Of a stretch of DNA of 4,741 nucleotides, positions 1-4,741 are shown piece by piece; position 1 is the first letter of the stretch; every line of letters begins with the position of its first letter. The translations under genes were made by a program, and so were the position numbers. The stretch lies in the IMG/VR virus record IMGVR_UViG_2724678985_000016; one strand, given 5' to 3'. Under the pieces are notes generated by a model that saw only the letters and a program-made list of their open reading frames with translations, was not told the origin of the DNA and did no database searches. This stretch comes from a virus. Lineage: Duplodnaviria; Heunggongvirae; Uroviricota; Caudoviricetes.

Positions 1-41
1 TATTATGCTTCCATCGGAAACGATGATCTGGCAGCCTGAGT

Positions 42-361: not shown

Positions 362-1327
362 TTATCCCCTGAAACCAGGCGGAATTTCTGTATCCGGTTC
401 AGAAATATGATTCACACAACGCTGTACAGGTGAACGTCCCAAGCGGATGACCAGTTCGTCCCATTTTTCGCGGAGTTTTGACGGGCTCATGATGTTTTTT
501 ACCCAGAATGGATCTCGCTGTACCCGACCAAACATTTCGCAAATTTGTCTGTGGCTTCTGCCATCCAGCATCCGCATTGTGCGCACGTCATTGGCCCAGG
601 CTGTCCAGTTAGGCTCTTTTGGTCGCATGATCTCTCCATCGTCGCTGGCAGCCTGTTCGTAAAGGTTCACGATCCGCCCCCAAATCCACTGCGCACACGC
701 CAAATCCTCCCTGCTACCCCACTGGCGTTTTTTCGCACTAAACACAACCGCGTCGGGGTTCCGGATTAAAAAATCCTGTTCAGCGGTCTGCGGGTCCGGT
801 TGCGAAGCTTCCGGACGAAAAGTGTTTTTATTCTCTGTAGTAATCTCTGTTGTATTCTCTGTAAGATCATCAGGCCATTTTGACCCGATGACATTGGGTC
901 GTTTTGAACCAATGGAGCGTTTCATTTTGACCTCTTCCATCGTGTCATTTTGACCTGATGGAGCGGCGCATTTTGAACCGATGGATTCGTTCAATTTGCC
1001 ACCATCTAAAAGCTCGTTCCCATAGTTGATCGTGTAGAAATTGGTCATATCGCGCTTTGATTTATTGAGCTTTTCACAACGCAAAAGCCCCAGCGTTTTC
1101 AGACTTGCAAACGCGCGCTTTAACGTTGACTCTGACCAGAATGGGAACTGTTCCAGCCATTGTTCCGTTGTGTTGTAAATCCAGCGAACACCATCACATT
1201 CCATGCCGGAATTGGTATCTCTCAACCAGTAATGCAACTGCTGCAACACAATGGCTTCATTTAAGCCAATCTTCATCGCAAGCTGTGTGTTTATAACCAG
1301 TGGGCGTTCAGCAAAAAGAAGGCTCAT
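362..1327 (-). CDS. Phage replication initiation protein (lambda O-like / replisome organizer), 321 aa from ATG at 1327
   Basis: Long ORF on minus strand (track ORF 362..1381). I place the start at the ATG at 1325-1327 (MSLLFAERPLVINTQLAMKIGLNEAIVLQQLHYW...), which overlaps the upstream gene stop by only 20 bp instead of 74. The N-terminal motif resembles phage replication-initiator N-domains (recalled). The gene contains 23-bp direct repeats at 876..1006 encoding repeated IGSK peptides, the classic ori-inside-O arrangement. Position downstream of cro/cII-like genes fits a lambdoid replication module. Confidence 0.75.
   Translation of the reverse strand: MSLLFAERPLVINTQLAMKIGLNEAIVLQQLHYWLRDTNSGMECDGVRWIYNTTEQWLEQFPFWSESTLKRAFASLKTLGLLRCEKLNKSKRDMTNFYTINYGNELLDGGKLNESIGSKCAAPSGQNDTMEEVKMKRSIGSKRPNVIGSKWPDDLTENTTEITTENKNTFRPEASQPDPQTAEQDFLIRNPDAVVFSAKKRQWGSREDLACAQWIWGRIVNLYEQAASDDGEIMRPKEPNWTAWANDVRTMRMLDGRSHRQICEMFGRVQRDPFWVKNIMSPSKLREKWDELVIRLGRSPVQRCVNHISEPDTEIPPGFRG
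820..1006. other. Putative prophage origin of replication (iterons plus adjacent AT-rich tract) embedded in the initiator gene
   Basis: Iterons at 876..1006 are followed, in the direction of initiator transcription, by an AT-rich tract at 820..875 that contains the short repeat tattctctgta twice (833-843, 858-868). This mirrors the lambda ori organisation (established knowledge); function is inferred. Confidence 0.6.
876..1006. repeat. Iteron array: about 6 direct repeats, 23-24 bp period, consensus roughly CATTTTGA(A)CCnGATGG
   Basis: Seen in sequence: copies begin at 876 (cattttgacccgatg), 900 (cgttttgaaccaatgg), 923 (cattttgacctcttcc), 946 (cattttgacctgatgg), 969 (cattttgaaccgatgg) and a degenerate copy at 992 (caatttgccaccatc). 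Spacing is 24,23,23,23,23 bp. Confidence 0.8.
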
Positions 1328-1829
1328 AATTCCATCCAGCTTTTTGTTGGTATTGCTGTCGATACGCAAGTTTGAAAGCAATTGCTTTTTCTATAAGTTC
1401 GTCAGTTTCACGATCCACTACGGCAGGATCAGCAAAAAGCATTCCGGACTCCACCACATCGCCATATTCTTTGTTTAACCCGGCGATCATGTACGTGATG
1501 CTTTTTCCGTCACTAATTTCACGATACAACCTGAAATCATTAATCCGGATAGCCTCCATAATTGCAGGCACTAGCGCCGTGAACTTTTCACGCTTATCCC
1601 TAGTGTCGATAGCCTTCCAGCGTTCGAATATCTTCACTCGATTAACGCCAAGCGCTCGCTGATCAACCGCGCCACCTTCATCTGTGACACGCTGAACATC
1701 GATGTTCGGGCGCTCTTTCAAAGCCCAGAATGATTCAGTGATTAATATCGTCGCCTGCTCCTGTGTCATTCCTGGTCGACATATCCAGGCATCCAGAGCC
1801 TCACGAGCCTGTTCAGGAGTGATTTTCAT
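1308..1829 (-). CDS. YdaT-family protein (prophage CII-like regulator / toxic protein family), 173 aa
   Basis: ORF with ATG at 1827-1829 overlapping the dicC-like stop by 17 bp (translational coupling). The segment KIFERWKAIDTRDKREKFTALVPAIMEAI matches my recollection of the conserved core of E. coli Rac YdaT (pattern RW...T..REK...L.PAI). Position immediately after the cro-like gene matches the ydaS-ydaT arrangement. Recalled, not searched. Confidence 0.65.
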   Translation of the reverse strand: MKITPEQAREALDAWICRPGMTQEQATILITESFWALKERPNIDVQRVTDEGGAVDQRALGVNRVKIFERWKAIDTRDKREKFTALVPAIMEAIRINDFRLYREISDGKSITYMIAGLNKEYGDVVESGMLFADPAVVDRETDELIEKAIAFKLAYRQQYQQKAGWNYEPSFC

Positions 1830-2040
1830 TGTTCAACCGCCCCGCCCGCTTCGTCTTACGATATTCGTCATAAACCTTGGGATCATACAGAAGCTCGCCG
1901 CCAGATGCCTCCTGTAGACGCATCGCGCGACCTTCAGGAACCAGCTCTTGCCATTGAGAAACAGCAGATGGGTCAACGCCAGCAGCTTTCGCTACTTTGG
2001 CTTTCGTACCGTAAAAATTAATTACGTCTGATTTAAACAT
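1813..2040 (-). CDS. dicC: Cro-like small DNA-binding regulator, DicC/YdaS family, 75 aa
   Basis: ATG at 2038-2040 preceded by GGAGG (TTGGAGGTGCG-ATG); the track ORF begins 9 codons further upstream but lacks an RBS there. Divergent from dicA across a 77-bp operator region. The C-terminal VPEGRAMRLQEASGGEL...YDPKVYDEY matches my memory of DicC/YdaS proteins. Confidence 0.75.
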   Translation of the reverse strand: MFKSDVINFYGTKAKVAKAAGVDPSAVSQWQELVPEGRAMRLQEASGGELLYDPKVYDEYRKTKRAGRLNNENHS

Positions 2041-2117: not shown

Positions 2118-2525
2118 ATGAACGAGAAAACTTTAGGTCAACGCATTAGAGAAAGACGTAAGCAGGTAGGCTTAAGTCAAAACGGTTTAAGCAAAGCTGC
2201 TGGCGTATCTGGCTCATCAATTTCATTATGGGAAAGTGACCATACAGCCCCGCGTGGGCAAAATTTGCATCGCCTCGCCGAGGTATTGCAATGTTCACCA
2301 ACCTGGATACTGTTTGGCGACGAGGACAAAACACCAGCTCCCCCTGTTTCACTCGATAGTGCCTTAGACTTATCGGAAGATGAGTTAGAGATGCTGCGTT
2401 TGTATCGCGCACTTCCTAAATCAGAGCAACAAGCACAACTCAGCGAACTCCGCGCCCGCGTTGAGAATTTTAATCGCCTGTTCACCGAGCTATTAGAGGC
2501 TCGCAAACGCAACAAGCATCAATAA
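2118..2525 (+). CDS. dicA: DicA repressor (XRE-family HTH, cI/C2-like prophage repressor), 135 aa
   Basis: 135-aa ORF, the same length as E. coli K-12 DicA. N-terminal HTH (QRIRERRKQVGLSQNGLSKAAGVSGSSISLWE) and the stretch LHRLAEVLQCSPTWILFGDEDK plus C-terminal LSELRARVENFNRLFTELLEARKR closely match my recollection of DicA. Divergent from the cro-like gene. Confidence 0.9.
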   Translation: MNEKTLGQRIRERRKQVGLSQNGLSKAAGVSGSSISLWESDHTAPRGQNLHRLAEVLQCSPTWILFGDEDKTPAPPVSLDSALDLSEDELEMLRLYRALPKSEQQAQLSELRARVENFNRLFTELLEARKRNKHQ

Positions 2526-3416: not shown

Positions 3417-3691
3417 ATAGATTTCCTTCTTGGTTATTCGGAATAAGAAGGATACCACCTCGCCTGACGTGGTTAAAAGCAGGCACACAACACGAAAGCG
3501 CACGGCGAAGTTCGTCTCACTGTACGGTGTCGTTAAATTTAATTCGACCGTGCGCTTCCGGTTGTGGCAACCCGCGAAATGGCGCGGCGGTAAGTATGGC
3601 GGGGTTATTCCTTCCCCGTTGAGGACACCGGGTTGTCAGGTTGACCATACGCTTAAGTGACAACCCCGCTGCAACGCCCTCTGTTATCAAT

Positions 3692-3749
3692 TTTCTGGTG
3701 ACGTTTGGCGGTATCAGTTTTACTCCGTGACTGCTCTGCCGCCGTTTTT
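3692..3749 (+). ncRNA. dicF: DicF small RNA (Hfq-dependent sRNA targeting ftsZ and other mRNAs), including 3' U-tract
   Basis: 3692-3743 (tttctggtgacgtttggcggtatcagttttactccgtgactgctctgccgcc) matches the 53-nt DicF sequence as I recall it, with a possible single difference at the last base. It lies between ydfB/C and dicB as in K-12 and ends in a GC stem plus T5. Confidence 0.75.
3707..3749 (+). terminator. Intrinsic terminator at the DicF 3' end (GGCGG...CCGCC stem followed by TTTTT)
   Basis: Seen in sequence: GGCGG 3707-3711 pairs with CCGCC 3739-3743, followed by g + TTTTT at 3745-3749. DicF is known to be generated partly by termination at its own terminator (established knowledge). Confidence 0.6.
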
Positions 3750-3918
3750 AAAGTGAATTTTGTGATGCGGTGAATGCGGCTAAGCGCACGCGGAACAGTT
3801 AAAACCAAAAACAGTGTTATGGGTGGATTCTCTGTATCCGGCGTTAATTGTTAACTGGTTAACGTCACCTGGAGGCACCAGGCACTGCATCACAAAATTC
3901 ATTGTTGAGGACGCGATA

Positions 3919-4107
3919 ATGAAAACGTTATTACCAAACGTTAATACGTCTGAAGGTTGTTTTGAAATTGGTGTCACTATCAGTAACCCTGTATTTACTG
4001 AAGATGCCATTAACAAGAGAAAACAAGAACGGGAGCTATTAAATAAAATATGCATTGTTTCAATGCTGGCTCGTTTACGTCTGATGCCAAAAGGATGTGC
4101 ACAATGA
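3919..4107 (+). CDS. dicB: DicB cell-division inhibitor (MinC-activating, ZipA-dependent), 62 aa
   Basis: ATG at 3919 with GAGGA 7 nt upstream. Protein MKTLLPNVNTSEGCFEIGVTISNPVFTEDAINKRKQERELLNKICIVSMLARLRLMPKGCAQ matches my recollection of K-12 DicB (62 aa). The track ORF 3814..4107 has a spurious N-terminal extension. Confidence 0.9.
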   Translation: MKTLLPNVNTSEGCFEIGVTISNPVFTEDAINKRKQERELLNKICIVSMLARLRLMPKGCAQ

Positions 4108-4295
4108 ATTCAGCATTTGCGCTTGTTCTGACAGTTTTTCTTGTTTCCGGAGAGCCAGTTGATATTGCAGTCAGTGTTCACAGGACAATGCAGGAGTGTA
4201 TGACTGCAGCAACCGAACAGAAAATTCCCGGTAACTGTTACCCGGTCGATAAAGTTATTCACCAGGATAATATCGAAATCCCGGCAGGTCTTTAA
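4104..4295 (+). CDS. ydfD: YdfD-like small membrane/lysis protein, 63 aa
   Basis: ATG at 4104 overlaps the dicB stop (ATGA), with AAGGA 8 nt upstream. N-terminal hydrophobic segment MNSAFALVLTVFLVSGEPV. Position and sequence fit ydfD of the dicB operon (recalled). Confidence 0.8.
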   Translation: MNSAFALVLTVFLVSGEPVDIAVSVHRTMQECMTAATEQKIPGNCYPVDKVIHQDNIEIPAGL

Positions 4296-4388
4296 AACAG
4301 TTCCGTAATAAATATCCGGTTTCATTCTTATATGCCAGCAATGGCAGGGATTTGTTCATCCTTAAATCTGTCATGAGGTTAAAACAAA

Positions 4389-4741
4389 ATGAGTAAAGTC
4401 TTTATTTGCGCCGCTATTCCTGACGAACTGGCAACAAGGGAAGAAGGCGCTGTGGCTGTAGCCACAGCCATTGAAGCTGGCGACGAACGCCGTGCTCGAG
4501 CAAAATTTCACTGGCAGTTCCTGGAACATTATCCGGCTGCTCAGGACTGCGCTTATAAATTTATTGTCTGCGAGGATAAACCTGGCATACCCCGCCCTGC
4601 CCTCGATTCATGGGATGCTGAATATATGCAGGAAAACCGCTGGGATGAGGAATCCGCTTCCTTTATTCCGGTCGAACCAGAATCCGATCCGATGAACGTC
4701 AATTTTGACAAGCTGTCCCTTGAAGTACAGAACGCGGTCCT
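4389..4741 (+). CDS. ydfE: YdfE-like protein, 5' portion only (open reading frame runs off the window end)
   Basis: ATG at 4389 with GAGGT about 10 nt upstream; in-frame translation MSKVFICAAIPDELATREEGAVAVATAIEAGDERRARAKFHWQFLEHYPAAQDCAYKFIVCEDKPGIPRPALDSWDAEYMQENRWDEESASFIPVEPESDPMNVNFDKLSLEVQNAV continues without a stop to position 4741. It is absent from the ORF track because it has no stop in the window. Position after ydfD fits ydfE. Confidence 0.7.
   Translation, partial: MSKVFICAAIPDELATREEGAVAVATAIEAGDERRARAKFHWQFLEHYPAAQDCAYKFIVCEDKPGIPRPALDSWDAEYMQENRWDEESASFIPVEPESDPMNVNFDKLSLEVQNAV

Follow-up and report, generated by a model that had tools for sequence, protein, structure and literature searches.

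Iteron-type replication origins that lie in the middle of the initiator gene are a well-known kind of element. The origin of phage lambda occupies gene O, and six-iteron origins inside O have been established experimentally for the Shiga toxin (Stx) phages 933W and P27 (PMC7466680); a paper on the Stx replication module (PMC8044961) does not treat the iterons. In lambda and these Stx phages, direct repeats 20-24 nucleotides (nt) apart, with partial dyad symmetry around an A-tract, are joined just downstream in the direction of the gene by an AT-rich tract, and the whole belongs to an early operon of the rightward type behind Cro-like and CII-like genes. All of these features recur in a 4,741-nt stretch of viral DNA (IMG/VR record IMGVR_UViG_2724678985_000016), called the window below at its full length, which is a 100% match to a prophage in Escherichia coli O111:H8 genomes. 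Judging from sequence comparison, we consider it probable, at roughly 80%, that this lambdoid prophage has its vegetative replication origin at positions 825-1007, inside its own O-like initiator gene. The reading is carried by the anatomy of the segment, by constraint at the level of the DNA, by conservation across the family and by the homology of the C-terminal domain (C-domain) of the initiator. The window thus appears to offer a fresh example of a familiar kind of origin, from a family of iterons and N-terminal domains (N-domains) that is largely unannotated.

A second group of described systems is also relevant. The N-terminal winged-helix domain of RepA_N initiators binds iterons that are semi-palindromic direct repeats converging on a poly-A tract (PMC7145576). 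The GGTCA-AAA-TGAC(c) iterons of the present family, as summarized in a position matrix built from 86 distinct iterons in 15 loci, fit the description given for the RepA_N initiators of pSK41, pTZ2162 and the Vibrio PLE RepA. The C-domain of RepA_N initiators is variable and host-specific; that of the present family is likewise variable, is lambda-O-like in the window and stands in a phage context. In many RepA_N plasmids the origin is reportedly located inside repA.

Table 1. Features of the window that bear on the predicted origin (aa, amino acids; E, expectation value).
Feature	Positions	Strand	Basis and remarks
O-like replication initiator gene	362..1327	-	321 aa; ATG at 1327, stop codon 362-364; PHROG 391 'replication initiation O-like', E 1.9e-92
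N-domain (~aa 1-105), presumed iteron-binding winged-helix domain	1013..1327	-	Shared by 80 genome loci and many phages at 49-99% identity
Iteron array, six ~23-nt units	869..1007	- (gene strand)	Repeat finders, motif counts, position matrix
AT-rich tract, 3 x 12 nt, presumed DNA-unwinding element	829..864	-	+ strand TATTCTCTGTAG / TAATCTCTGTTG / TATTCTCTGTAA; gene strand ACAGAGAATACA...
C-domain (~aa 183-296), lambda O C-domain homologue	440..781	-	blastp against lambda O; helical in AlphaFold2 model
C-terminal tail (aa 301-321), VQRCVNHISEPDTEIPPGFRG	365..427	-	Near-identical to the last 21 residues of E. coli DnaT
YdaT/CII-like gene, directly upstream of O in the same operon	1308..1829	-	Pfam YdaT_toxin; PHROG 163 CII-like, E 1e-39
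Cro-like (DicC-type) gene, first of the leftward early operon through O and the origin	1813..2040	-	Pfam P22_Cro, E 4.5e-16; RefSeq coding-sequence coordinates
DicA-type repressor gene, divergent from the early operon	2118..2525	+	Pfam HTH_3, E 2e-15; position as K-12 dicA

Iterons and an AT-rich tract within the initiator gene

A first-pass annotation, made from the letters of the window alone, had described six tandem repeats of ~23 bp. Five of these proved strong and one weak. On the + strand the full motif reads CATTTTGAMC(nGATGG), and the strong cores CATTTTGAMC occupy positions 876-885, 900-909, 923-932, 946-955 and 969-978; the sixth core is degenerate (CAATTTGCCA) and stands in register at 992-1001. 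All share one orientation, with core-to-core spacings of 24, 23, 23, 23 and 23 nt in rising coordinates. Read on the gene strand, the unit is atCCATCrGGTCAAAATGac, with the core GGTCAAAATG and the partial palindrome GGTCA-AAA-TGACC. The tandem-repeat search that the first-pass annotation had proposed as a check returned a period-23 array at 902-985 (Tandem Repeats Finder, 3.7 copies, score 70), and a second repeat search found 23-nt-spaced families over 868-999. Motif counts agree: CATTTTGAMC with at most one mismatch occurs five times in the window, always on the + strand, against 1.17 expected, a count reached by one of 200 shuffles, and the 16-mer CATTTTGAMCNGATGG, which includes GATGG and was allowed up to three mismatches, occurs four times against 0.33 expected, a count reached by none of 200. 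The repeats are real, periodic and above chance.

The AT-rich tract that had been reported to follow the repeats is real as well, with a correction of strand. Because the gene lies on the minus strand, the tract has lower coordinates than the repeats and yet is downstream of them; as had been claimed, both elements fall entirely within the O-like coding sequence. The tract encodes TENTTEITTEN and is itself periodic (period-12 array at 832-863 by Tandem Repeats Finder; a family of three 12-nt units at 829-864 in the second search). Its GC content is 0.30 at 820-859 and 0.28 at 825-864, and the latter segment is the least stable 40-mer of the O gene, at -44.3 kcal/mol against a mean of -55.0 (standard deviation 3.5), about 3 standard deviations below. 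The order of parts is that of the lambda record, in which four iterons stand in O at 39034-39118 with spacings of 20, 24 and 23 nt. The iteron sequences themselves are unrelated, being of the GGTCAAAATG type here and ATCCCTCAAAACGAGGGA in lambda.

Repeats inside a coding sequence might reflect the protein rather than the DNA, and it is appropriate to ask whether the periodicity is simply that of a low-complexity linker of the IGSK type, with no role for the DNA as such. The core GGTCAAAATG is indeed translated as SIGSK in three copies, TEN, TEI and TTE triplets recur in the peptide, and 12 nt, the period of the AT tract, is divisible by 3. However, 23 is not a multiple of 3, so the copies fall in three reading frames and identical cores yield different peptides; the other three copies read SGQND, EEVKM and GGKL, and the IGSK-containing linker described earlier therefore holds for three of the six. 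Codon positions tell the same story in 10 orthologous loci that align without gaps across the origin segment. Conservation at positions 1, 2 and 3 is 0.92, 0.96 and 0.70 in the N-domain, compared with 0.95, 0.96 and 0.875 in the iteron cores, 0.86, 0.89 and 0.87 in the spacers and 1.00, 0.87 and 0.98 in the AT tract, which is 95% conserved overall and 98% at third positions. The usual relaxation of the third position is thus lost in the origin segment. Furthermore, in an AlphaFold2 model that must be regarded as rough (a shallow alignment of 16 sequences; mean predicted local distance difference test score (pLDDT) 56), residues 108-175, which correspond exactly to the iterons and the AT tract, score below 50 and connect two folded domains. 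Given the three reading frames, the lost third-position relaxation and a peptide that is modelled as disordered, these comparisons indicate that the constraint acts on the DNA and not on the protein. Relatives also retain the DNA motif with differing encoded peptides. We have rejected a protein-level repeat on the reading-frame and codon-position evidence; it is largely refuted and, in our judgement, highly improbable.

The predicted origin is far from unique to this prophage. By tblastn, 139 phage records contain the N-domain, and the identity is still ~51% in phages of Staphylococcus and Bacillus. A scan restricted to a single genome from each species found it in 80 loci, and homologues, 4297 of them found, fill more than 4000 clusters. 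Alignments of the N-domain among relatives stop just short of the repeats. Across 86 non-redundant loci, from Enterobacterales to Bacillaceae and Staphylococcus, a common though not universal layout runs from the N-domain through repeats spaced by ~23 nt to a TENTTEITTE-coding tract and then to a variable C-domain. Within the 15 loci of the position matrix (N-domains 62-100% identical), 11 keep six iterons with gene-direction spacings of 23, 23, 23, 23 and 24 nt and the same pattern of reading frames. In a pool of 90 loci, the best family of 9-mers reaches 3.7 copies in the 240 nt that follow the N-domain, compared with 2.0 and 2.2 in coding regions used as controls; among the pooled spacings 23 nt leads by a wide margin (102 cases), ahead of 24, 22 and 46 nt. 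The 86 non-redundant loci have 1.80 copies of the motif CAAAWTG per 240-nt linker, mainly on the coding strand, versus 0.01-0.12 elsewhere, and an A-rich tract coding for TE(I/T)TTE follows the repeats in nearly all loci. The cores are specific to clades, with GCAAATTGC and GAGGGCAA in Pantoea and Pseudomonas, GGACAAA in Hafnia and in Staphylococcus phages, and CTGTTCAAA in Geobacillus, as would be expected if each N-domain reads its own repeats.

A group of Neobacillus and Bacillus loci (our loci L054, L057, L059, L068, L069, L074 and others) has the same N-domain with a short linker, no ~23-nt repeats and no TENTTE-coding tract. In these loci the origin would therefore lie elsewhere, or the protein would have another role. 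Since such distant relatives lack both features, the placement of the origin within the gene is common but not universal in the family.

The AT tract also occurs in other company. A stretch of 40 nt (829-868) is shared at 97.5% identity with many O genes of Stx1a and Stx2a phages, and these genes have N-domains, iterons and C-domains of unrelated kinds. One such gene belongs to the O-plus-DnaB-helicase module of the Stx2a phage Stx2_14040 (our locus L003): the tract lies at the same position, preceded within the gene by direct repeats of its own, which are iterons of the GGGAAAMC type, and a DnaB-type helicase gene comes next. Conversely, in a Klebsiella phage and several genome loci the resemblance to the window extends through the N-domain, iterons and AT tract, and a different C-domain begins right after the tract. 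These patterns raise the possibility that the tract, and perhaps the repeats, serve mainly as boundary sequence at which N- and C-domains are exchanged by homologous recombination, and not as an unwinding element. Such a role would leave the periodic iterons, their orientation and their fixed spacing unexplained, and TE[IT]TTE-coding tracts are found from Staphylococcus to E. coli, a range well beyond the reach of homologous exchange. Moreover, it is compatible with origin function without replacing it. We regard it as quite unlikely that this is the main role of the tract. The distribution of the tract fits a portable, generic unwinding element, which may additionally act as a recombination joint between modules.

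The initiator and its DnaT-like tail

The claim that the locus follows the ori-in-O architecture of lambda stands for the order of its parts and for the C-domain, and does not extend to the N-domain or to a P gene. In blastp, similarity between the initiator and lambda O begins only at the end of the origin segment (34% identity, E 2e-28, residues 147-294 here and 135-270 in lambda), and on this similarity the C-domain is homologous to that of lambda O. The N-domain is not of the Phage_rep_O type and gave no blastp alignment with the N-domain of lambda O. Neither the initiator nor any of 10 N-domains matched Pfam Phage_rep_O (PF04492) or RepA_N (PF06970), and sequence and profile searches of the N-domain against PDB sequences returned nothing.

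The AlphaFold2 model gives the N-domain the order helix-helix-strand-helix-helix-strand-strand over residues 10-101 and a helical C-domain at residues 183-296. When the model was compared with PDB structures using Foldseek, winged-helix DNA binders took the top ranks, with the RepA_N structures 5kbj and 4pt7 first and third at non-significant E values of 0.09-0.12. Because the model is of low confidence and the fold matches are non-significant, the assignment of a winged-helix fold is merely suggestive. For RepA_N, the iterons suit the description, the fold match is weak and non-significant, and there is no match at the level of Pfam sequence models.

Two further differences from lambda concern the end of the gene: no P gene comes next, and the protein carries an extra C-terminal tail. 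This tail reads SEPDtEIPPGFRG where E. coli DnaT (primosomal protein i) has SEPDsQIPPGFRG, and the N- and C-domains of DnaT are absent. It accounts for the only PDB sequence matches of the initiator, to residues 159-179 of the DnaT chains 2ru8, 6aep and 9zbt. The NCBIfam DnaT equivalog model NF002770 likewise finds the tail only, matching positions 160-179 of 179 at 16.2 bits against a cut-off of 201, and so gives no full-length DnaT match. The 63-nt piece that encodes the tail is 92-98% identical on otherwise different O genes, and the motif P.GF[RK] recurs in 26 related Enterobacterales loci, where it is attached to three or more different C-domains. In none of those 26 loci does either of the two reading frames downstream of the initiator carry a Walker-A motif, and in 23 of them the downstream frames are all shorter than 170 aa; loci that lack P.GF[RK] more often have downstream frames of 240-450 aa. 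In the window, the gene directly downstream is DUF977/Ren-like and not a P-type helicase loader, and no P, DnaC or DnaB gene accompanies the initiator. Phage HannyBb, which has the same initiator gene as the only annotated replication gene in its 45 kb, has no annotated helicase or loader gene anywhere in its genome.

These observations allow a working model for the module. Loss of the DicA-type repressor would permit leftward transcription through the Cro-like, YdaT/CII-like and O genes, and the initiator would be made. Dimers of the N-domain would bind the iterons and form a complex resembling the O-some, which would put strain on the adjacent AT tract and open it. The host DnaB helicase would then be loaded, probably through the C-domain and the DnaT-like tail acting on host proteins, given that no P, DnaC or DnaB gene accompanies the initiator; this is the most speculative step. 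We tentatively propose, as a possibility that we would not yet call probable, that the tail is a docking motif joining the origin-bound complex to the host primosome, through PriA/PriB or through DnaB-DnaC, and that it replaces lambda P such that no phage helicase or loader is needed. The tail may, in other words, mimic a docking motif of the host in place of a phage helicase loader. Neither a review (PMC5778457) nor a 2026 paper on the structure of the preprimosome (PMC13377028) states a function for the C-terminal tail of DnaT. This lead is more interesting than the origin itself, whose interest is modest, and an O-type initiator that has the DnaT tail and no P could reveal the binding partner of the tail in the host.

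The prophage module and the standing of its predicted origin

In the identical O111:H8 genome the prophage occupies the Qin attachment site, adjoining rspB. Its leftward operon runs from the Cro-like gene through the YdaT/CII-like gene to the O-like gene, and the DUF977/Ren-like gene comes next. The program-made reading frame of the O-like gene reaches further, to a TTG at 1381; the 966-nt coding sequence that starts at the ATG has the same length in phages mEp460_ev081 and HannyBb. That ATG lies 20 nt within the end of the YdaT/CII-like gene, whose stop is at 1308, and this overlap (1308-1327) is identical in the same two phages, which suggests translational coupling between the YdaT/CII-like gene and the initiator. 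No sigma-70-like promoter was found in 300-2200, terminator-like sites occur only at the chance level, and DnaA boxes (TTWTNCACA) are limited to a single chance-level match at 302-310, with none inside the origin. Further along the window, a full-length gene for the small RNA DicF is present at 3693-3744 on the + strand (Rfam RF00039, 72.5 bits, E 3.6e-15), within a block that is ~97% identical to K-12 Qin.

The first-pass annotation had contrasted this locus with the decayed Qin prophage of K-12, and the contrast holds for the elements considered here. The Qin prophage of MG1655 matches the window at 1550-1941, 2283-2348, 2647-2861 and 3475-4739 only. Nothing to the left of window position 1550 is found in Qin, so the O gene and the repeats are missing there. 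Elsewhere the gene is very common. Of 5426 complete E. coli genomes, 1779 contain at least 80% of it, under the RefSeq/PGAP label 'hypothetical protein' for the initiator, and the isolated phages mEp460_ev081, HannyBb and PhiR42_1 carry it at 97-99% identity.

The prophage itself shows signs of damage. The end of an IS1203 element covers window positions 1-39 and truncates the DUF977/Ren-like gene (42-323). In the identical O111:H8 genome (our locus L095, 18826-20321), IS1203 adjoins O, and no nin/Q region is left between O and the lysis genes. The missing nin/Q region implies that this prophage is probably defective in late gene expression, with O and the predicted origin intact, and it may be able to replicate in situ without being a viable phage.

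A separate observation concerns a relative of the initiator at 82% identity in E. coli AH02 (our locus L097). It is encoded on NZ_CP081704.1, a 43.7-kb circular record deposited as a plasmid. With its integrase, lysis and tail genes, this record constitutes the complete genome of a temperate phage. The record has no plasmid replicon type and may represent a replicating episomal form of the phage.

Given this damage, it is reasonable to question whether the segment is an origin at all. The repeats might instead be sites at which the initiator binds for autoregulation, copy control or incompatibility, or they might be a relic, with replication starting elsewhere or, in so damaged a prophage, nowhere. 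Binding sites are not by themselves proof of an origin, IS1203 lies next to O in a prophage that has lost its Q region, and those relatives of the N-domain that have no linker repeats would place their origin elsewhere. However, the tract that always comes after the repeats is the least stable of the gene and is conserved even at third codon positions, and the arrangement is exactly the annotated layout of lambda ori. The gene is also intact and nearly identical to that of isolated phages, and the window holds no second combination of repeats and AT tract. We consider it unlikely that the repeats are only binding sites or a relic.

Several further points weigh against an origin at 825-1007 and are best stated together. 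The conservation test covers just 10 loci, which are related in sequence, and about half of the distant relatives, including several Neobacillus loci, are without such linker repeats. The fold assigned to the N-domain depends on a model with a mean pLDDT of 56 and a best match at E 0.09, and no Pfam family was found for the initiator or for 10 N-domains, which gave sub-threshold winged-helix matches only. There is no P gene to account for the recruitment of a helicase. Finally, in the searchable literature we found no experiments that demonstrate autonomous replication, unwinding or binding for these iterons, and no paper on the iteron family, on the replication of mEp460 or on 'initiator-solo' modules.

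If the segment is the origin that we predict, a defined set of iterons and an unwinding tract can be added to a replication module that is very common and poorly annotated. Knowledge of the origin would also help to predict which prophages at the Qin site can still amplify in situ after induction. More broadly, cores of CAAAWTG spaced by 23 nt and followed by a TENTTEITTE-coding tract provide a DNA signature with which candidate origins could be found throughout a family that reaches the phages of Staphylococcus and Bacillus.

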